A stretch of DNA of 64,000 nt, taken from the NCBI RefSeq assembly GCF_035594765.1, contig NC_085845.1, forward strand, positions 33,164,024-33,228,023. Direction: 5' to 3'. A program made the position numbers and the translations under genes. The notes beneath the pieces are model-generated. The model saw nothing but the letters and a program-made list of their open reading frames with translations, searched no databases and had not been told where the DNA came from. This document shows, in pieces, positions 21,487-61,309 of the stretch. The stretch's first letter is position 1. Each line of letters starts with the position of its first letter. The DNA comes from Anolis carolinensis (lineage: Eukaryota).

Positions 21487-22245
21487 TATCTGTGGAATGT
21501 TCAGGGTGACTGAGAGAAAGAACTTTTGTCTGCCTGATGCAAGCTTGAATGTTTCAATTAGCCAGCTTGATTAGCACTGAATAGCCTGGCAGCTTCAAAG
21601 CCTGGAGTGTACTGTATACCATGCAGCTGTGGACAAGTCTACATAGGGGGCATCAAACGTAGCATTGCCCAAACATGAATCAAAGAGCATGAAAGGCACT
21701 GCAGACTAACTCAACCAGAGAAGTCAGCCATAGCAGAGCACTTGATGAACCAACCTGGACACAGCATATTATTTCAGAATACAGAAATGCTGGACCGCTC
21801 TCAAAACCACCATGTCAGACTACACAAAGAAGCCACTGAAATCCACAAGCATGGGGACAACCATGAAAATGAACAAAATCTGGTTACCAGTATTTAAAAA
21901 CTCTAAAATCTGGACAGTAAATAAAGAACAACACTAAAAAAAATGGGAACTCCAGACAGGAAACAATTAGGGACATCTAACACCTCCCAACAAAGGATTC
22001 TCCCAGACAGTAAGCAGCCAGACTTTGAAGCTGCAAGGCTATTCAATGCTAATCAAGGTGGCCAATAGCAACATTCACACTTGCATCAAACAGACACGAA
22101 TTTTTTCTCCCACCCTGGACCTTCCACAGATATTTAAACTTCCCTCACAACCTCTGAGGTTGCCTGCCATAGATGTGAGTGAAACGTCAGAAGGGAATGC
22201 TTCTGGAACATGGCCATACAGCTCGGAAAACCCACAGCAACCCAG
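21487..22245 (+). mobile_element. Penelope (Poseidon-like) 3' fragment with GIY-YIG remnant and inverted 5' segment
   Basis: From 21604 it translates GVYCIPCSCGQVYIG..KRSIAQT*IKEHERHCRLTQPEKSAIAEH (GIY-YIG endonuclease). 21487-21604 is an inverted copy of ~22020-22135. Confidence 0.85.
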
Positions 22246-22261
22246 ATTTGTGTGTGTGTGT

Positions 22262-22441
22262 GTGTCAGGAGGAACCTGAGTTCCTTGTGGAGTGAGAGAA
22301 TTGGCTGTCCGCAAGGACGTTGCCCGGGGGATGCTCGTCATCTGCGCTCTCCCCGGGTGAGATTCGAACCTGGCAGCCTTCAGGTCAGCAACCCAACCTT
22401 CAAGTCAGGAGGCTTTTATCCCCTAGGCCACCGGAGACTCC
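22262..22441 (-). mobile_element. Internally deleted CCTGACAC-tailed SINE
   Basis: Matches both ends of 23717-23982 with the middle missing. Confidence 0.75.
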
Positions 22442-22750
22442 TAGCAAGCCAGATATCAAACTCCATTATACAGTATGTGAAATCACAGCAGCCCCTTTGC
22501 TTACTGTGAAACAGTCTACAGCAGACACGGGCAATTAAACTGAATGCTGTGGAACCCTGGGATTTGTCCTTTGGTGAGGCACAGAAAAAACTAAAGACCT
22601 TGCTATGCTACAGTTCCCAAGGTCCCATAGCACTGCTCCATGGCAGATGAAGTGACACCAAAAAACTGCATTATATGTGAAAACACAGCAGTGTGGTGGA
22701 AATGTTTTTGGACAGCAAGTCCAAAGTGCGCACCCCCAAATAGTATTTTC

Positions 22751-22884
22751 CAGGCATGGGCAAACTTCGGCCCTCCTGGTGTTTTGGACTTCAACTCCCA
22801 CAATTCCTAACAGCCTACCGGCTGTTAGGAATTGTAGGAGTTGAAGTCCAAAACACCAGGAGGGCCGAAGTTTGCCCATGCCTG
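22751..22884. mobile_element. Young hAT palindromic MITE
   Basis: TIR CAGGCATGGGCAAACTT; 65-bp arms (1 mismatch) around a 4-nt loop; perfect 8-bp TSD GTATTTTC (22743-22750 / 22885-22892). Confidence 0.92.
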
Positions 22885-22889
22885 GTATT

Positions 22890-23640
22890 TTCGGAAAGCA
22901 GGCACTGAGTGGGTACAGAGGGGTTGTTGTTCCACGCACGCACCCGCGCCCCCTCTCCCTCAATTTGGGTCCCACGCCTCCCAGAGGAGACTCCTGCGGG
23001 GCGCCAAAGCTCCCCACGTCAGCGACATTGGCTCGTTTGCCCTCCGCGGAGGGAAGAGAGAGGAAGAGGAGAGCTTTCGGATTTGGCAGTGGCCGCACCA
23101 GGCGAGCATCCCTCCTCTCCGGAGGATCCGTCTCATCGCGGATCGGGCGGCCAGGGAAGGGCAGCCCCCACCCCCACCCCCACCAGGAAAGGGGACCTCC
23201 TCCCCCTCCCCCTCCTCCCTTCCTCGCGTGGGAGACGCAGCAGCAGCAGCAGCATCAGTTCCAGCATCCCGTCCAGGCGCCTCGCAAGGGAGGCTGTGCG
23301 TCTGGAGGCGGAGAGCGAATTCTCCTTTCTTCTTCTCCTTCCTCCCGCTTTGTACCCCATCGCAGCCTCCGCCGTGGGGTCTCCAGCCTCTTCCTCGTCG
23401 GCGGAGGGGACAAGCGCTTTCCTCGGCTTTTGCGGAGCCTGGAAAGGAGATTTCCAAGCGGCAGCGCCAGTCTTGCGGGGGAAGGAACTAACGGAGGAGT
23501 GGAAAGGCCACCATGGGGAGTCTGGAGGAGCAGGGCTTCAGGTAAGATGCTGCGGGGAGTGGGCGCCTCGGAGCCCTTCCCAAGTTGGGAAAGGCTCAAC
23601 TTCAGAGCCTTGATTCGGGTCTGCCTTTCCAATCCCGACC
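22890..23640 (+). promoter_or_regulatory. NDST3: CpG island / promoter of NDST3
   Basis: GC- and CpG-rich, non-repetitive island in an AT-rich background, ~8 kb upstream of the first coding exon. Contains CCACGTCA (23014-23021), an inverted CCAAT (23027-23031), a (CAG)5 tract and a strong splice donor. Confidence 0.8.
23100..23541 (+). other. NDST3: NDST3 non-coding exon 1 (start approximate; donor CAG|GTAAGA)
   Basis: Consensus 5' splice site at 23541/23542 inside the CpG island; vertebrate NDST3 has a non-coding first exon. The TSS cannot be determined from sequence. Confidence 0.65.
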
Positions 23641-23716
23641 AAAAAGTTCAGGGATGAGACTCCATATGGCTACTTCTCTCCCTCTCTCTTTCCTTCTCGT
23701 CATGGAAGGGGAGGCT

Positions 23717-23982
23717 TTTTTTTCGTGTCAGGAGCAACCGGAGTTGCTTCTGGAGTGAGAGAATTGGCCGTCTGCAAGGACGTTGCCCAGGGGACGCCCG
23801 GATGTTTTGATGTTTTTACCATCCTTGTGGGAGGCTTCTCTCATGTCCCCGCATGGAGCTGGAGCTGATAAAGGGAGCTCATCCGCGCTCTCCCCGGGTG
23901 GGATTCGAACCTGGCAGCTTTCAGGCCAGCAACCCAACCTTCAAGTCACGAGGCTTTTATCCCCTAGGCCACCGAAGGCTCC
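23717..23982 (-). mobile_element. tRNA-derived SINE with CCTGACACG(A)n tail
   Basis: Full-length copy with CpGs retained; TSD-like GGGGAGGCT (23708-23716 / 23986-23994). Confidence 0.88.
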
Positions 23983-24270
23983 TATGGGGAGGCTGAGTAG
24001 CCCTTATCCAAAAGGGATACTCCAGATTTCAGATTTGGAGAGATTTGGGGGAGATTGCCATTACACCATTCATGTATTGGTTTATTTACTGGTTTTTATG
24101 TTTAACCTTCTTTTTCTCACAATATAGGGACTCAAGCCAACAGGAAATATAAAATTATCTAGTGCATTGCCTGTTTCCCCAAAAATAAGACCTACCCTGA
24201 AAATAACACCTATCATGATTTTTCAACATTTCTGAGGATGCTAGAAATATAAGCCCTATTTTTTTTAAAA

Positions 24271-36930: not shown

Positions 36931-37772
36931 CAGGGCCGGTTGAACATATTAGGCTGCTGAAGCGGCCGCCTCGGGCATGGGCCGCTAGGGGCGCTGTCGA
37001 GGCGTTGACAGCGGCCCGTAGCACCACCGATGCCGCCGCGCCGCCGCTGTTGGCGCGGGGCTTCGATCCCTCGCGCCCACACCAAACTGCACAGCACAGA
37101 TCGGCCATTTTTCCCTTAGTTCCTAGACGAAGGCGCAGATCGCCCGGGCAATCTGCGCCTGCGTCCAGGAACTAAGGGAAAAATGGCCGATCTGTGCTGT
37201 GTAGCGTGCGCACAGCTCAGATTGCCCATTTCGCCCTTCCTGGACGCGGCCGCAGTTCGCCCGGGCGATCTGCGGCTGCGTCTAGGAACTAAGGGCAAAA
37301 TGGCCCTTAGTTCCTGGATGCCCAGGCGATCAGCGGCCGCGTCCAGGAAGTAAGGGCGAATTGGGCGATCTGAGCTGTGCACGTGCGCACAGCGCAGATC
37401 GCCCATTTCTGCCCTGCCTGCTCAACGCAGGCGCAGATCGGCGGCGATCTGCGTCTGCCTTGAGCAGGCTCCGGGGAAATGGGCATCTGCCCTGTGCGCA
37501 CGCGCACAGGGCAGATCACCCATTTCTGCCCTGCCTGCTCAAGGCAGGCGCAGATCGCTGCCGATATGCGTCTGCGTTGAGCAGGCAGGGCGGAAATGGG
37601 CGATCGCACAGTGGCACCATTGCCGCCGCTGCCGCAGCCACCGCTGCCGCAGCAGCAGCAGCCGCCGCGACCTCTGGTTTGTGTGTGTGTGGGGGGTGTT
37701 GGGCACCAAAATGGGGGGGGGCACCAAGGAGTAGGTTCGCCTACTACTTGGAATGACCTCGGGCCGGCACTG
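36931..37772. mobile_element. CpG-rich non-autonomous hAT element with an internal palindrome array
   Basis: Ends CAGGGCCGG / CCGGCACTG; perfect 8-bp TSD ACTGGAGC (36923-36930 / 37773-37780). Confidence 0.9.
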
Positions 37773-38842
37773 ACTGGAGCATTGTGCAGATACATATTGG
37801 GTCAGTTCACATATACTGTAATGCTAAACTAGATTTCAGGTGAACGCTGGGTTGTTGTTTATGATCTTGGTGCTCATCCAGACTACTGGATCCCTTCTGC
37901 TGCATTCCAGTGTGTTTTAATATGTGGCCCAGTCTAGAAAGCTAATACGTGCAGTGGCCTTGTGATAATAATCCAGAATTCTAACAATCAAATACATTCA
38001 CTGCATGCACACCATTCATGATAAGTTTTGTCACTAAGCACTACTTGCATACTTAGGGATAACATGTTTGGTGGAACAAAATCTTCAATCTCAAATATAG
38101 TGTTTGATTTTCCCCATATAAATGCAAGGTAATTATTTATGTTGGAGAATATAAAAATTATTGTTGTTATGCACTATCAAGCCTACTTCAGTTTGTTGTA
38201 ATCCTATGACATCCAAGAAGTCCTATTATTAAGAGACCTGCTCAGATCTTGCAAACTGTGTTAAAATGAAAACAACTTAATGTGTATATGTATGTATACA
38301 CTGACCTCATGTATAAGTTGACAGGATGTCTTGAGGCCAAAATTATGGGTGTTGATATGATCTGTAGATAAGTCGAGGGCCATTCCACTGAGAAGGGAAA
38401 GCACCAATACTGCCTTAGGCAGTCAACCATCACTACTGCCACCATTTCCCTGCCAAAGCATTCAGCCTGGTTCTACACTGCCGTAGAATCCAGTTCAAAG
38501 CAGATAATCTGGATCAGAAAATGGATTACATGGTAGTGTACATGGGGCAACAGAAAGGCCAGAAGTTGTGCCACAGTGTAATGAGTGAAGGAAATTGGTG
38601 CTTGTTTTAGGGTCTCCCAGAATGGACTAACCTCTTGCCTTTTGCTATTCTTCTCAAAGAAAGGGATTATTCTTTTTCCAATAAGAGTCAAGGTACAGTA
38701 TTCACATTGACTTATGATAAGTCGATCCTAGATTTTTTGGATGGATTTTGACTAAAGTTCTAGACTTCTACATATATGATAATTACATCAGACAATGTTA
38801 AACCAACATACTTAAAACCAACCTTCATTGTATCTTCATAGT

Positions 38843-52931: not shown

Positions 52932-54336
52932 TACCATAATATGAACATTATTGAAACCATGAATAAAATGTGATCTATAGGAAGAAACGGTGGTAGATAA
53001 CTAATGTTCATAGCTTTCAAAACAGAAACAGTTATTGAGGATCTACCACAGATATCTCACCTGGATCTTTTACCCTAGCAATATCTGCACTGCTTTTCTG
53101 CTTTAGATAGATATAAATCCTGCATTATATAAAATTTTGTAAATAAGCTGGAATATAATGTAAAGTGTGTTTTAAACCATAACTTCTCAGAAAAGGCTTT
53201 CAGAAATAATAGTAATGTCTATTCTTGTTTATAACAGAAAACAGGTTTTTATTTCCTGAGGCCAATGTACAAGACCCAACTTCCAAAATATATTTATGAT
53301 TTTTATTTAAAAATTGTCACACAGAATAATGTTAATATTTTTCATCCTGTCAACTTTTAAAGACATCTATCATTCTTGTAATCTGAATGCATTTATATTG
53401 TTTTGGTAGTCACAGTCAGCATCATTTTTCCTCTTTGCTGCAATACACCATTATTTATTTTGCTGCTGTTAAAAACAATAGATGCCTGGTTCTATATATG
53501 CATTTCATGAAGTATTTATGACCTCTGCTAAAATGTGAAATAAGGTGAAGGAGTGCCAATTCTTTTGCATGTGCCAAAATCTCTTTCCTTAACTGCTACA
53601 AAAAGCAGACGTATTTCCTCCCCATTCCTCCATAATTTGACATTGCTGGCATAAACAAGATTTACTTAAATACATTTGGTTATCAATGAACAGGTCATAA
53701 AGTGTAGTTGTCTGTAGTGGTATGTTGTTTATAGCCCAACATACCCCTGAGCAGGGCCGGCCCTTGATAATTTTCAAGTGTAAGTGAACAGAATTTTGGT
53801 GCCCCCCCCAAAACCAATCAATGAAAAATAAAAGCATTGGATAATAAGGAGGGATTAAGGAAAAGCCTATTAAACATCAAATTACATTATGATTTTACAA
53901 ATTATGCACCAAAACATCATGTTTTACAACAAATCAACAGAAAAAGCAGTTCAATACATGGTAATGTTATGTAGGAATTACTATATTTGCGAATTTAGCA
54001 CCAAATATTGAACTGGGATATAGGGCAGTGTGGACTCAGATAACCCAGTTCAAAGCAGATATTGTGGGTCATTCTGCTTTCAGTCAGTCAGTCAGTAGCC
54101 TTTATTTCGGTCAACAAACCATTGGCTAGGATCAAGTTATAGTACAGATGTAGTACAGATCAAGTACAGATGGAATACAGCATTTGAGTAATTTATGACA
54201 ATTGCATTTGACTTATGGTTAATAACAGGTATGTACAAACTCTATTGGCTATTTGACTAACTTTATAATCTAAAACAAAAACTGTTTGCAGATTAGTAAA
54301 CTGTCCCCTAGATATTCTTTGTTATACTCTCAACAC

Positions 54337-57300
54337 TTACAGATTTTTCATGAAGCACTTGCGGCTTTTTGCCGCTGAAAAGAGAAATTTAGCCACCTGC
54401 TCCGTTATCCTTTTGTCAAAGTCAGACAGTAAATAACTGCGGTACCAATTTAGGGTTCTTCCTGGCCATTTAGTGAGTAGAGGTGATATTAACCTTAATC
54501 TATCATCTTTGTAAATTGTACAAATAAAAAGTACATGTATAACAGTTTCGACATTTCCCTCCCCGCAAGGGCATGCTCTGTGTTCGTATTTAATGCCTTT
54601 GTATCTGCCCTCTAGTATGGCTGATTTGAGTGCATTGAATCTGGCCCAGCTAAAAGCAAGGCGAAACTTTGGTATATTTAAGTTTTCTAGATATTTAGCA
54701 CCTCCCATAGAATTAAATGTTAGGCCTAGAGTCAATGGGGAGCATGTGGAGCGCGCCTGAGTCATTGAGGTTTGTTTGTCTATGTCACTAATTCGCTCTG
54801 CTAAGATCTTCACAGTCTTTTTATACTCAAAACCCCTCAGTATATTCTCTGAAAGCCCCAATTGCCTAAACTTCTCATTTAATGCTTTGATTTGGTGGGA
54901 TTTGAAGAGGTCTTTTTGAATCAAATATATATATCCTGCTTCAGGTCCTTTATATATCCTCTCAATCCAATATCCTAGGGCCCTTCTCCAAGCTGTTGAT
55001 TCCAATGAGGCTGTTCCAGATTCAAGTCTTAAAACAGCAGATGGAACACAATTGGGGACAGCGAACAGTTTTCTAAGGAACCCTGATTGAACTTGTTCAG
55101 CTTTAGATGAGAAGCCTGTGATCCAAACAGGAATTGCGTAAAGTAGCTGGGCTGTTACCTTTGCTTGGAAAACCTTTATTGCAGCGGGGATATATTGACC
55201 ACCTTTTGTGTAGAAAAAGCGTATTATAGCTTTACTACTGGATAAAGCATTTTGTATTGCCATTTTTTGATGACAACCCCAGGAGCCCGAGGCCTGAAAG
55301 GTCACCCCCAGGTATTTAAAGGAAAAAACTTGTTGTATTAAGTTTTCTCCTATATACCAGTTGTGTCTGGCTCGCTTTTTTGAGAAAATCATGATTTTGG
55401 TTTTACTGTAGTTTATCTTTAGATGATTTTTCTCACAATATTCGTAGAATGCCCTCAGCACTCGCTTGAGTCCTACCATGGTGTAGGATATGAGGGCAGC
55501 ATCATCTGCATACAGCAATAGGGGTATATTGGTGGATGAAATTTTAGGGGGATGTCCATTTGGTAGTGAAACATGGGCGGCCAAGTCATTCAGGTATAAA
55601 TTAAACAAAATAGGGGCCAGGATACAGCCCTGGCGCACCCCCCTGTTGACAGCTATTGGTTTTGAGAGGTTGCCTTGTACACCACATCTTACTTGTGTTG
55701 TAGTGTCTGAGTATAAGCTCTTGATCAGCCAGAGCAATCTTTTGTCGATTGTGGTCTCCTGCAGTTTTTGCCACAGCAAATTTCTTGGGACAGAGTCAAA
55801 CGCGGCTTTTAGATCGATGAAAGCAGTATATAGTCCCTTGTAGGGACGTTTTTGGTATTTTTCAGCTAGGTGGTTTAGCACAATACAGTGGTCTATGGTA
55901 GACCTCCCTTTTCTAAAGCCTGCCTGTTCCTCGCCTATTATTTTTTCGGAGTCCAACCAGTCTAGGAGCCTGTTATATAAGTGGCGAGAATAAAGTTTTC
56001 CCACCACCGAGAGCAGGCTGATGGGACGGTAGTTTGCTGGGTCGTTTTTGTCCCCTTTTTTATAAATTGGGATTATAATAGATTTTGACCACGGGGCAGG
56101 AATTAGGGCTGTGCGGTTAATGTGTGTGAAGAGGGGGGCCAGAAAGGCTGTCCACCATGAGATGTTGTTTTTTAGATGTTCGGGGGCTATTTGATCTGGG
56201 CCTGGGGCTTTACCGTTTTTCAGTGATGAAATCAAACTTTTAATCTCCCTACCGGTCACCGGGGACCATTGTGGTGCATCTGTGCTACCGAAGGAGATCA
56301 CTGGATTTTCTTCCCACTCCCTTCTGGGTATCTCTTCATTTGACCCATATAGTATAGTAAAATACTTTTCCCACACCTGAACTGGTATATGGCATTTGGG
56401 AGAGGTTTTCCCAGATCCCAGCATTCCCGTGACCAGGGTCCAGAATTGCTTGGAGTTGTTGTTTAAGGAAGCATCTACAAGGGCATCCCATCTTCTATTC
56501 ATTTTCTCCCTCTTGTTTCTCACTAACATGGCTTTGTATTGTTTTTTGATTGTATAGTACATTTTGGGGAGATTCTGGGAGTTTTCTGCTCTATAGGACT
56601 GATAAATCTGGTTTAGCTTCTTTTTTAGTATTGCACATTCCTTCTGTGTATCTGTTGTCCCCTCTCCTTGGCTTTGGGTCCTAAATCTGCCTACTAATTT
56701 TTTTCCTGAGACTATTAATTCTTCTGTGAGATGTGAGTATTTTGATATTGCTTCCTCCGCACTTTCTGTTTCTGCTATGATCTTTCCCAACTCCAGCAAG
56801 AAGGGGTCTGAAGTTGCTGGAGGTTTGTTTTGCTTCTTTGTATCCCATCTAAGTCTGTTTCATCTTATGTCTAGGGTGGAATTATCTAGATAGTGTTGTG
56901 GACTTAAGCGTTGCGCATTAGGAAGACTTACTATATAAGAAATCGGGAGATGGTCACTTTCTGTTCTGGATACTGTGGTGAAATTCTCTATATGTTTATA
57001 CGTGTGATTAGCTACCAGAACGTAATCTATCACACTGCTGCCACTTCCTGATATATAGGTAAATTCGGCACATCTCTCAAATTTAGGGTCTCCATTTATT
57101 ATGTTTAGGGCTAGTCTTGATGTCAACTGCGCTAAGCATATCCCAGCTAAGTTGATCTTGTTATCCTTAGATTTCCTGTCAATCTTGTTTAAGTGGTCTT
57201 CCAACTCTTCCAGGTGCCATAACTTAGAGGCAAATAAGGTTGTATTATCAGGGCCCAGACGAGCATTAAAATCTCCTGTAACAATTAGTTTAGATTTTGG

Positions 57301-57807
57301 GAAGCGTGATTCCAACATTACTATGTAATCTTCCAGTTCCTCCCAAGTGCGGGTAAGCTCTAGCTTTTTGGGGCTGGGGGGAATATATACGTTGACCAGG
57401 AGTATCTGTGTAGGCCCATATTCTATGTGACAAGCCATAGCTATATGGCTGCAATTGTCAACTGATTTGATTTTTGCCCCAAGGGATGTGGACAGCAGAA
57501 TGGCCAGGCCTGCTTTCGGTCGCCCTCTATCTTTTTCCATTTTAGCCGGGGAGTCAATTATAGTGTATCCGTTGAAATCTATAGGCCCTTTACTCCATGT
57601 CTCCTGAAGCGAGATCACATCAAACTTCCTCAAAAATTTGCTTACCCCTTCCTCTTTACTTCTGGTCTGCCATCCTGCTATGTTCCAAGATAGACAGTTC
57701 AGGTTAGATGATTTTGTTTGCAATGTTTTCACTTTTGGGACTGTTGGAGGTTGCGGAATGATGGACTGGGTGGGACGTGTTTCATTTTTTAGTATATTCC
57801 TGACTAG
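54337..57807 (-). CDS. LINE ORF2 (APE endonuclease + reverse transcriptase), in frame with ORF1; one internal TGA at 56860-56862
   Basis: EN motifs SWNIAG, LQETW, NVYIPP, GDFNAR, IDY, SDHLP; RT motifs KAPGPD, NYRPISLL, QAGFR, FIDLKAAFDSV, GVRQG, YADD, FKYLG. ORFs 56860-57732 and 54337-56799 are the same frame, joined by 20 sense codons. Confidence 0.88.
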
Positions 57808-59622
57808 TCAGTGATCACCCTTAGAATGGCTCACTGGTTCTGTTTGTCGCCCTCCTCTAGCCCTTCCATACGTCATGTCCGTCTCTGCTAGATCCCCTAT
57901 GCAATGTCCTGGATCAGGTTGAATTTTATCCCCCTTGGTCATCCTGCTGAGAAGCTCTACCCGTAGCAAAGTCAGTCTGTCTATTATTTCCCTTTGACTT
58001 AATTGTGGCAAGCATTGGAATGTTTCCAGCAGGTCACTTTCCTCATCTATGTATAGCTCACTAAAGGGTGTTTCAGTTATGAGCCAATTGGGCACTGATT
58101 CCAGCTGCTTTGCTAGAGGGAACTGTTTTAGAGGTTTAGGGGTATCTGTTAGATCTATGAGATTGGCTTCATTGCAATGGATTTGGTTAGACCTGGAGAG
58201 TTGTTTAGGTTCCTGTTTGAATAGTGGGAAGGGAGGGGAGCTGTTAATAAAGTACCGAGAGATGGACATCCCGAGCTCCATAAGTTTTTCCTTAAGGCAA
58301 TACAGTTTGTTAGTTACTTGCTTGTTTGTACATGTTATAACTGCCCGGGCATGTGAGTAGTTGTAAAAGAGGTATTCTATCTGGGTTATTTCAGCTAGAC
58401 TAATGACATTGCACCCCACAACTTCTAAAACCCTTAGAAGGTGGCCTTTCCGTTCTGCTGGTGAGAGGAGGCCCAGGGGCTTAGGGTAGTTAGAGATCAC
58501 CAACTTGTTTGGCACAAGTATCATCTCCCAATCCCCCACATCTGGAACATCAAAGTTCTTTACCCATTTCTTTTCATTGTTGTCCTTGTTTTCCTTTCCT
58601 TTAGCAAAGACGGTTTCCCAGGGATCCTGTGTGACTTGTGGGTCTGCTAGTATTGCTGGGTCACACAGGAGGGGTGTCGCTTGATTGACTTCCAGGACAT
58701 CAAGAACTGTTCTTTGCTTGATCTGATTTATTGATGTCTCGTTTTTAGATTCCGGTTTACAATTTATTTTGTCTATCTTATCTTTAGGGGGCTTCGCAGT
58801 AGTACCTCGATCTTTCTTCTTATCTGTGTGTTTATACTTGAGGATCTTTTGAGAGTTTAAATTTGATTGTTTTACTGTGGATGTGGCCACTTTCTTCCTT
58901 TCTTGATCTTTTTGAAGACTTCTGCATTTGTACTTTATCCTTTTGTGAGCCTTGCTGTGTTTGGGGGAACTTATTGTGTTGTTGTTTTTGTTCCTTGCCT
59001 TTTTTCCAAGATGCCCTTTTATGCTGGGGTCGTTGACCTCCGTGTCTTGATTTAAAGTTGGGAAGGTTTTCTCCTTGCTTGCTTCCTGTTTGACCATAAA
59101 TTGTGTTATTGTAATCAGGAGGGCATTGGTTTCTGCAAGGTAAATCTTTATAGCCTGAATATCAGCGTTCAAACTGGTTAATTGATTGACCAGATCCTCT
59201 GCAATGAGTGGTTTTTTGAAGGCCTCTGATGTTAGATTTGTCTCTAGATCGCCCTCTGTTATATTCATAGGGACCTCCACCACGTCTTCATTGGGGGATG
59301 ATAAAACATGCCTCCTGTGCCCTCTCCTACTATCCAGATTATCCAAATTGTCAGTAGCGAAGGCAAACTCCTCAGCAATACTTATGCCTGAGTTCTCATA
59401 AGGATTAAAAATTACCCGACAGTGATCTAGGGTCCAGTCGAGAGGCGAAGCTGAGGGGGTGTTCTGTTCCTGCTCCAGCTCCTGTATTTTGACTATGGGA
59501 GAGAAGTAAGTTTTTATCTCTGTTTGTTTTGTTTTCTTTCTTTTCCCAAACGGGGGAGATGAGATTAGCGGAGACAGGGACTTGTCACTGTTTCTGTAGG
59601 TCTGTCTTGTTCTGATTACCAT
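57808..59622 (-). CDS. LINE ORF1 protein (604 aa; coiled-coil, basic region, probable RRM-like domain)
   Basis: Uninterrupted ATG-initiated ORF upstream of EN/RT, with a heptad repeat (LVNQLTSLNADIQAIKIYLAETNALL) and a Lys-rich segment. Confidence 0.8.
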   Translation of the reverse strand: MVIRTRQTYRNSDKSLSPLISSPPFGKRKKTKQTEIKTYFSPIVKIQELEQEQNTPSASPLDWTLDHCRVIFNPYENSGISIAEEFAFATDNLDNLDSRRGHRRHVLSSPNEDVVEVPMNITEGDLETNLTSEAFKKPLIAEDLVNQLTSLNADIQAIKIYLAETNALLITITQFMVKQEASKEKTFPTLNQDTEVNDPSIKGHLGKKARNKNNNTISSPKHSKAHKRIKYKCRSLQKDQERKKVATSTVKQSNLNSQKILKYKHTDKKKDRGTTAKPPKDKIDKINCKPESKNETSINQIKQRTVLDVLEVNQATPLLCDPAILADPQVTQDPWETVFAKGKENKDNNEKKWVKNFDVPDVGDWEMILVPNKLVISNYPKPLGLLSPAERKGHLLRVLEVVGCNVISLAEITQIEYLFYNYSHARAVITCTNKQVTNKLYCLKEKLMELGMSISRYFINSSPPFPLFKQEPKQLSRSNQIHCNEANLIDLTDTPKPLKQFPLAKQLESVPNWLITETPFSELYIDEESDLLETFQCLPQLSQREIIDRLTLLRVELLSRMTKGDKIQPDPGHCIGDLAETDMTYGRARGGRQTEPVSHSKGDH

Positions 59623-61309
59623 GGTTCTTTTAAAATGAAGTCACAGAGTCTTTAAGCAACCAAGAGTTTTAGGTACTAGTTAATAACTGTTAGTTGGTAT
59701 TTGATAGAGATTGCTGCAATGACTTTGATAAAGCATGCCAATATATCTTGATATGTTTTAATACTTGGCCTTTATCTGCAGTCCTTATATCATCTACTGT
59801 TTTGTTCCTTGCAGTTTGTACCTATTTAGCAGAGATTAGTGCTTTGAAAGAGCTCTGAAGTAAAACAGCTCAAAGAGTGTTCCTTGAGTCAGCAGCCTTG
59901 AGTAGTAGAGGGCTCTCTGCTTCCTAGTATGTACTCCAGGGTAGCAGCCAGCAAACAAAAGGAGACCAGGAAAAAAAAGTAAAAAGTAAAAAAAAATATT
60001 TTAAAAAAACCTTTGGAAAACTGGAACACTGCAAGCCATCCAGCCAGCCGGGAAGAAAGCAGTTTGAGGCAAGCAGAGATTCAGCAATGTGATCCTCTTC
60101 TTACCTTACCTCCTTCAAGGGAGGCTTAGGCTTAGGTGTTTTCCAAACAGTTGCCGATAAAATCTTTAAAACTGCATTAGCTTCATATGAACAGTCTTTA
60201 GTAAAAGCAAGGAGTTCAAGGGCAACAGTCTTCAATTAAAATTGAGAGTTTAAGATAATATAAAAGCAATAAGATAACAGCTTCAGAACTTGCCCTTGAG
60301 CATATCTGCTTTGATATTCGGGTTATATGGCTGTGTGGAAGAGCCCTGAGGGTTCTTCCACACAGCCATATAACCCAGAATATCAAGGCAGATAATCCAC
60401 AATAGCAGCTTTGAAATGGATTATATAGAAGTGTGGACACAGATAACCCAGATCAAGGCAGATATTTTGGGTTATTCTGCCTTGATATTCCGGGTTATAT
60501 GGCTGTGTGGAAGAGCACACAGCCATCCTCCGCCTTTCCATCATTCCCTTTTCCCGCTGTGTGCCATGTCCTGCACCGCCTTACTCTCTCCCTCCTTCGT
60601 ACACGTGCTCCCCGCCTGGTAACGGTCACCACCAAACCTCCACCTCGGGCCGCTTCCAGAACACGGCATTCATTGGCTCCCGGCCTTTACCCGCAGGACC
60701 CCAGGGTTCCATATGAGGGGCCTCGCATGGCGCAACCCTTGTTTGGCCCGGCACGCGCATGGCGGCAGTTTCCACTCACCTTTTATATTTTCTGCCATCT
60801 TGCACCTCTTTTTTCCCCCTCCCTCTCCAGCCACTGAGCCCGCCAGAAACTTTTCATCACACTGGAAAAGAGAGATGAGTTGGGGGCAGAGCCAGACAGG
60901 GAGGTGGGAGCAGCGGCGCTTTCTGATTCACTGCCCTTCAGCCTCAGCCGCACTGTCCGCCCATTAGGAAGTCAAGGAGCGTTTCTAGTCCTTCCCTGAC
61001 AATATTTGTATTGCGGGGCAGACAAATGGGCGTGAAGGGGAACTGGGAGTGCTTGGGAGGCTCTCAAGGGGGCGCAGTCACCTCAACTGTGCCCCCAGAG
61101 GATTGCGCCTTCCACAACGGCATAGTTCGCATAGCGCTTGAACCGCCCCTGCCCTTGAAGAACCAGATCCTGTCCAATCTTTGAAGGGTCAGCGCTGATT
61201 AGCATTTGAATGAGAGACCATGAACAAATGCCAGCTTCTATAAGCTATATTCACCTCTGAGCATTCATTGTCTTAGAAAACTCTATGAACACATGGAGTC
61301 ACCCTAAGT

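Follow-up and report, generated by a model that had tools for sequence, protein, structure and literature searches.

The window analysed here is a stretch of 64,000 nucleotides from the lizard Anolis carolinensis (NCBI RefSeq assembly GCF_035594765.1, contig NC_085845.1, positions 33,164,024 to 33,228,023 of the forward strand). Its minus strand carries a long interspersed nuclear element (LINE) with two open reading frames (ORFs), the second of which encodes an endonuclease (EN) and a reverse transcriptase (RT). ORF1 and ORF2 lie in one frame and are separated by a TGA in a known readthrough context. According to the comparison of this junction with those of related families, the element probably (about 75% in our estimate) uses programmed UGA readthrough to produce a minor ORF1-EN-RT fusion of about 1762 aa.

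The ORF1-ORF2 junction in the window family

The features of the window copy are as follows.

54080..60302, minus strand: LINE copy of 6.2 kb, bounded by blastn against sister copies
57811..59622, minus strand: ORF1, 604 aa, with its AUG in a strong Kozak context (ACC-ATG-G)
57804..57810, minus strand: TGA-CTAG, where ORF1 ends, with the type II (UGA-CUA) context for readthrough (motif as defined in PMC13517186, PMC4132726)
57691..57807, minus strand: in-frame spacer of 39 codons with no AUG; the near-cognate codons ATA, ATC, ATT, GTG, TTG and CTG are present
56863..57690, minus strand: apurinic/apyrimidinic endonuclease (APE)-type EN (Pfam PF03372, E = 4.8e-13; PF14529, E = 1.6e-10)
56860..56862, minus strand: premature in-frame TGA of the window copy; in most young sister copies the frame is open here
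54337..56859, minus strand: rest of ORF2, with RT, C-terminal Cys/His motif and terminal TAA-G (Pfam and reading of the sequence)
57800..57811, no strand assigned: 12-bp palindrome CTGACTAGTCAG spanning the stop; incidental, absent from all 15 other families

The ORF1 stop is the TGA at 57810-57808 on the minus strand, and CTA GTC AGG follows in the unchanged frame, as an earlier note on this DNA had described. The note had also read the ORF-track start at 57732 as GTG, which is correct; this GTG is codon 26 after the stop. Its run of 25 codons into the EN was too short, since the spacer from the stop to the EN motif is 39 codons. The W of the SWN motif is codon 40, and the first in-frame Met is codon 90 (AUG at 57540-57538). 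In 24 of the 27 family copies with an intact junction, the EN motifs are not preceded by an AUG.

The conservation of the stop was examined using a genome-wide pattern in which the stop was written as NNN. TGA was found in 21 of 21 matches, and a control pattern gave none. As all 21 copies with exact flanks have TGA, it is not a copy-specific mutation but ancestral. A DNA search gave 30 loci, comprising 22 with TGA-CTAG, three with TGA-CTAT, one with TAA-CTAT and one with TGG-CTAT; two further rows are one copy interrupted at the junction, and one was unalignable. Older copies, with identities as low as about 80%, still have TGA-CTA, and only the preceding codon and base +7 differ. The stop is conserved among varying neighbours, a point that the note had asked to be checked. 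At the sequence level, the window family has a conserved stop, a kept frame and, in most copies, EN motifs with no AUG before them.

Thirty long stretches were fetched. The junction pattern is present in 24, and seven of these have the 604-aa ORF1 with an unbroken ORF2 (1156-1157 codons). The fusion of about 1760 aa proposed previously agrees with the 1762 aa calculated for copies with an unbroken ORF2; the window copy itself has the second stop and could give at most 920 aa. Copy L051, among the copies examined, likewise stops after 315 codons. The palindrome CTGACTAGTCAG does lie at the stop with the 12 bp noted earlier, but it is irrelevant. The longest palindromes at the junctions of the other 15 families are 2-6 bp, it is absent from older window-family copies with CTAT, and it was rejected as a readthrough signal.

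Sixteen families and nine junction lineages

Distant families were found by protein searches with three EN queries, in each of which 150 candidates were scored (of 992, 368 and 377). Among the 120 distant rows, 19 were left out (mostly near-identical copies of family F1, and two window-family fragments), and one more is missing. A decayed singleton, L186, which groups with F5/F8 at 70%, was excluded from the family count. Fifteen families besides that of the window share the ORF1-stop-ORF2 layout, with about 30-40% EN identity and 48-57% RT identity. Of 124 copies examined in these families, 109 are alignable at the junction (105 TGA, two TAA and two TGG), and the other 15 are truncated or rearranged there. 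The families were grouped by homologous junction flanks, according to our own judgement, into nine lineages.

TGA-CTA-G: window family (TGA-CTAG)
TGA-CTA-GAT: F7
TGA-CTA-GGA: F10
TGA-CTA-AAA: F13
TGA-CAA-CTA/TTA: F3, F6
TGA-CAA-TTA: F5, with the decayed F8 (F8 copies have CAA-TCA/TTG)
TGA-CTG/CTC-TC: F1, F4, F12
TGA-CTC-ACA: F9
TGA-AAG/AGG: F0a, F0b, F2, F11

The flanks of the nine lineages are unrelated (median pair identity 0.29 upstream and 0.27 downstream), and in each lineage an open frame of 228-682 codons ends at the junction TGA. ORF1 homology links seven of the nine lineages; F7 and F10 show none. The distance from the stop to SWN takes 12 different values, from 6 to 115 codons, all in frame. 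F0a and F0b differ by spacer indels of 3 and 84 nt, which keep the frame, and the 20-codon spacers of F1 and F12 have 33 nt differences but neither a stop nor a gap.

The stop is TGA in all nine lineages, C is at +4 in eight, and the exact CUA or CAR-YYA is present in six. The background was taken from 1265 off-frame stops of the same elements, which are 29% TGA, 6% TGA-C and 0.24% motif. As an internal control, the terminal stops of ORF2 in seven families are four TGA, two TAA and one TAG; one of the seven is TGA-C, and none has the motif. UGA-C has been kept while the flanks have drifted to random similarity, and selection is therefore implied. The leaky termination proposed in the earlier note is thus supported, at the level of sequence comparison, by 16 families, nine junction lineages and two known readthrough motifs. 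An A at +9, counted from the first base of the stop, is seen in seven of the nine lineages, AAG/AGG included (background 36%, nominal P = 0.013). This position corresponds to the last base of CAR-YYA.

In the RT tree, the 14 lizard families with an RT and four database proteins form one clade (96/99). F8 and F11 are not included in the RT tree, and F8 is not included in the EN tree (no unbroken segment). The RT branching does not follow the junction type, as the AAG/AGG junctions, and likewise the CAA junctions, lie on separate branches. This suggests that ORF1-junction modules were swapped, or that the junctions converged. F0, F2 and F11 have one ORF1 type and the junction in common, but their endonucleases are unrelated. 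F2 looks chimeric: the F11 spacer and a remnant of the F11 EN start are followed by a Met and by another EN start, which is related to that of F1/F12. In F1, most of ORF1 is as in F3/F6, and the ORF1 C-terminus and junction are as in F4/F12. Homologous proteins of other squamates, labelled Rhineura and Pogona, are known without their DNA context. A metagenome scan for relatives gave two loci, which match only query residues 452-924 and 633-807 and stop short of the junction.

Proposed readthrough and other possible routes to ORF2

The N-terminus of the EN bears on where translation of ORF2 could begin. A single-sequence PDB search using the EN gave no matches, but the family profile matched the L1 EN structures (E = 1e-14). 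In this alignment, the SWN and QE motifs fall on Asn14 and Glu43 of human L1 EN, which we take to be active-site residues. The aligned residues are codons 41 and 68 of the window frame and are invariant in 14 of 14 aligned families. A start at codon 90 would therefore give a crippled endonuclease, as both aligned active-site residues are upstream. No AUG precedes the EN motifs in 11 of the 16 families. The F3/F6 stop lies immediately before the first strand of the EN, five codons ahead of the W, and there is no room for an AUG. An ORF2 reached by readthrough would explain why the automated models P0001 and P0017 begin inside the endonuclease.

P0001, a UniRef protein labelled Anolis carolinensis and 99% identical to the window element, begins at the codon-90 Met. 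This would fit an ORF2 that begins at this internal AUG, with the in-frame TGA-C as a neutral leftover. Such a start removes the invariant residues aligned with Asn14 and Glu43, however. The window-family copies are young (98-99.8% identical), with a probable target-site duplication, and a neutral stop would not remain TGA across 30%-identical families. We regard this explanation as hardly credible, and it is largely refuted by the sequences.

In the readthrough proposed here, most ribosomes would terminate at the UGA and release ORF1p. A few per cent would insert a near-cognate residue and then continue for about 1157 codons. Residues inserted at UGA readthrough are Trp, Cys and Arg. The signal would be the local sequence (UGA-CUA or UGA-CAR-YYA), not RNA structure; UGA-CUA (type II) and CAR-YYA (type I) are the two readthrough signals that act through context alone. 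No conserved RNA structure was found 5' or 3' of the stop in 100-150-nt windows of 15 families (F8 was not folded): z is below -2 in one of the 15, and the window element gives +1.2/+0.1, in a folding that did not cover pseudoknots and long-range pairing. Type I readthrough and the mammalian CUAG cases need no 3' structure (PMC13517186, PMC4132726). In HEK-293T reporters, UGA-CUA alone gives 1.5% readthrough, and CARYYA after the OPRL1 UGA gives about 15% (PMC4132726). Native CUAG genes give 0.5-6.4%, strongly dependent on the surrounding sequence (bioRxiv 10.64898/2026.07.14.738498).

The fusion would remain uncut. No NPGP (2A) motif is present near the junction in any of the 16 families, and a protease domain was not seen. 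The C-terminus of ORF1, which is of low confidence in the structure model, could serve as a linker. Readthrough would set a high ORF1p:ORF2p ratio, and through the fusion the enzyme could enter the particle that ORF1p forms on the element's own RNA. The TGA-AAG/AGG lineage probably departs from readthrough, with some of its families using an in-frame AUG. An AUG that overlaps the stop (A-TGA; F0, F2, F5, F8, F10 and some F11 copies) was rejected as the ORF2 start, as the frame that it opens is -1 and extends for just 7-84 codons.

Several points weigh against the readthrough reading. The nominal P values, if the lineages are independent, are 2e-5 for TGA, 1e-9 for TGA-C and 1e-14 for the motif, but the lineages share ancestry (one RT clade) and these values overstate their independence. 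All junction DNA is from one genome. The CTG/CTC-TC and CTC-ACA lineages have only the +4 C without the exact motif, and the AAG/AGG lineage keeps the in-frame TGA without the +4 C. In F11, a member of this last lineage, both the motif and an AUG are absent, which shows that the in-frame TGA can be retained with no recognised signal. An earlier in-frame AUG, at codon 18 or 26, is present in three of the 27 window-family copies, and an in-frame AUG precedes SWN in five of the 16 families (F0a, F0b, F2, F10 and F12; in F10 and F12 it sits only two codons before the W). The in-frame UGA junction of Tca2, a long terminal repeat (LTR) element of Candida, shows no readthrough in a Saccharomyces cerevisiae reporter (PMC2194720). 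No fused protein with a window-type ORF1 was found among 868 candidates, none of which scored; this is a weak test. The EN query gave 14 matches among longer proteins, none over 1136 aa. Pointing the other way is P0058, a database protein of a more distant element; read by eye, its single chain seems to combine an L1-like ORF1 with an APE endonuclease. P0058 is possibly a natural single-ORF relative, and it hints from its sequence that ORF1-EN fusions exist.

A rival explanation is AUG-independent termination-reinitiation as in L1. Ribosomes would terminate at the UGA with release of ORF1p and then resume at a near-cognate codon nearby, giving free ORF2p; in a variant, the 80S ribosome would restart at the next codon and keep the frame. 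Initiation of mammalian L1 ORF2 is considered unconventional and AUG-independent (PMC5009743, PMC10760644, PMC5972666), and the absence of an AUG alone therefore proves little. Near-cognate codons are in frame in all 16 spacers, and the AAG/AGG lineage has no leaky context and has an AUG in three of its four families. Reinitiation does not predict, however, that all nine junctions are in frame although the spacer has 12 lengths (nominal (1/3)^8 = 1.5e-4), that UGA is the only stop used, or that two known readthrough motifs occur. In F3/F6, the sole near-cognate candidate is one TTG/CTG two codons before the W. The lizard L1 families instead show overlaps or long spacers (PMC5381506), and a leaky stop at GCN4 upstream ORF4 lowers, not raises, reinitiation (PMC5972666). 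According to these results, reinitiation is unlikely, though it is the alternative to which we give the most weight.

A separate or processed ORF2 message is very unlikely. It could arise from an internal promoter, splicing across the stop, or adenosine-to-inosine editing of the UGA to a Trp codon. The Tca2 gag-pol junction contains a minor promoter (PMC2194720), and TGG is found at the junction in three old copies. These TGG copies are singletons in decayed families, a structure to guide editing is not conserved around the stop (the same single z below -2 in 15 families), and in 11 of the 16 families a shorter message would still reach the EN motifs without an AUG. In contigs of four sequencing runs, of guessed type, the stop is free of joints, indels and base changes; as rare variants are lost from contigs, and the contigs may derive from DNA, they have no bearing on expression, splicing or editing. 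Selenocysteine recoding through a selenocysteine insertion sequence (SECIS) element would explain why the stop is UGA in all lineages. A SECIS or other relevant Rfam match is absent from 53900-60500 at E<=5, and the UGA lies in an unconserved linker, not in an active site. The chance of this recoding is negligible.

Readthrough at the UGA remains the favoured reading, and it may extend to the whole squamate LINE clade. The clade would have settled repeatedly on both classic viral signals (alphavirus-type UGA-CUA and tobacco mosaic virus (TMV)-type CAR-YYA), junction modules would have been swapped between RT lineages, one lineage would have lost the signal and turned to AUG reinitiation, and the active enzyme would be a covalent, uncleaved ORF1p-ORF2p fusion. 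We consider the chances of this wider proposal to be evenly balanced.

Anatomy, classification and significance

The window copy is slightly short at its 5' end relative to sister copies in the blastn comparison. Its 3' end is AATAAA followed by an (ACTG)n tail, and its flanks contain a probable 8-bp target-site duplication AAAGCAGA, which was looked at in the window copy only. RVT_1 is located at about 56049-55297 (Pfam PF00078, E = 8.4e-41), and the best PDB match for ORF2 is L1 ORF2p (E = 3e-29). ORF1 has no Pfam match at E<=0.1. In the AlphaFold model of its C-terminal 264 aa, the mean predicted local distance difference test (pLDDT) score is 60, with 64-88 for the domain and below 50 for the last ~35 aa. 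A ferredoxin/RNA recognition motif (RRM)-like domain is predicted at about aa 373-457, with weak Foldseek matches (best E = 9e-4), and the C-terminus is likely disordered according to the model.

The 5' untranslated region (59623-60302) contains five upstream ATGs (60186, 60177, 60039, 59793 and 59736) before the ORF1 start. The LINE seems to be inserted in a small inverted-repeat element resembling a miniature inverted-repeat transposable element (MITE; window 60305-60530 and 54000-54080). Rfam matches to microRNA precursors at 60307-60390, all below the gathering score, probably reflect the MITE-like hairpin. A second 3' fragment of the same family (L038:511-1177, 667 bp) lies directly upstream of a full-length copy as a tandem insertion. 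GC-rich islands are located at window 22000-24000 and 37000-38000 (51-61% GC), and the rest of the window is ~38% GC.

The order of APE endonuclease then RT in ORF2, supported by Pfam and by the L1 EN and ORF2p structures, is that of an APE-type LINE. The dispersed copies without LTRs, the simple-repeat 3' tail, the 5' truncations and the target-site duplication of the window copy are those of LINEs. The element departs from the L1 clade in its (ACTG)n tail instead of poly(A) and in the absence of an AUG before the EN. The full ORF1 of the families (450-680 codons) is unlike RTE/BovB and fits RTEX, but is not diagnostic. RTEX has a real ORF1, in contrast with RTE/BovB (PMC3905857), and is recognised in amniotes (PMC5753468). 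The SGNH esterase, an optional RTEX feature, has no Pfam match in the window ORF1, and the modelled part is ferredoxin/RRM-like.

The junction probably works, judging from its sequence, like type I/II programmed readthrough placed between ORF1 and ORF2 of a LINE. The stop is in frame between conserved coding regions, and a recognised motif is present in six of the nine lineages, the window family (UGA-CUA(G)) among them, with three lacking the exact motif. The type II UGA-CUA of alphaviruses and of AQP4, MAPK10, OPRK1, OPRL1 and MDH1 (PMC4132726, PMC13517186, bioRxiv 10.64898/2026.07.14.738498) is found as UGA-CUAG in the window family, F7 and F10, and F13 has the UGA-CUA-A variant. Compared with these cases, the lizard signal would gate an essential retrotransposon enzyme of ~1150 aa, and a conserved 3' stem-loop was not found. 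In F3, F5 and F6 the stop is immediately followed by CAA-TTA or CAA-CTA, a match to the TMV-like type I CAR-YYA (PMC13517186); the motif follows UGA in the lizard and UAG in TMV-like type I. Type I has not been found in animal viruses, though it is functional in mammalian cells (PMC13517186).

Moloney murine leukaemia virus (MoMLV) gag-pol (PMC13517186) and Tca2 (PMC2194720) likewise have a structural and an enzyme ORF in one frame with one stop, which sets the stoichiometry. Both are LTR-type elements, whereas the lizard element is a LINE. In MoMLV the signal is UAG-G with a pseudoknot, and the fusion is cut by a protease. Mammalian and lizard L1 and SART1 are also bicistronic LINEs with an RRM-like ORF1 and an APE-RT ORF2 (PMC5972666, PMC5381506, PMC10760644, PMC5009743). 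In these elements, ORF2 begins with an AUG that follows a spacer or lies in an overlap, and reinitiation produces it, whereas the window element has no such AUG. Non-LTR elements with 2A/StopGo show recoding at the N-terminus of an APE-type ORF2, twice between ORF1 and ORF2 domains (PMC13405545); unlike these, the lizard families use a real stop codon.

The idea of readthrough at a LINE ORF1 stop is not wholly new, as it was suggested for the Paramecium Group 3 non-LTR elements (Guerin et al. 2017, PMC5405496). That suggestion takes one line and was drawn from consensus sequences of a ciliate-specific clade; the text consulted gives neither an analysis of motifs nor a test. The lizard clade differs in its vertebrate host, its 16 families and its two recognised motifs. 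No report of stop readthrough in a vertebrate LINE or RTEX was found in the sources covered, which did not include Repbase Reports, subscription journals and supplements. The available text of one lizard LINE survey (PMC7140322) contains no occurrence of readthrough or stop codon, and that of another (PMC5381506) describes L1 overlaps and spacers with readthrough unmentioned.

The translation of ORF2 in LINEs is still only partly understood (PMC10760644, PMC5381506). The known routes are reinitiation, stop-start overlap, frameshift and 2A, and UGA readthrough, if true, would be a further route, similar to that of retroviruses. ORF2 of a vertebrate family that is young and has unbroken copies would then depend on UGA readthrough, and its EN-RT would work while fused to ORF1p. 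The nine naturally diverged junctions form a comparable set for one reporter series. If the wider, clade-level proposal is true, the lizard families would be vertebrate LINEs of a Gag-Pol-like kind, and nature would have provided in them a series for testing how LINEs set ORF1p:ORF2p ratios and cis-preference.

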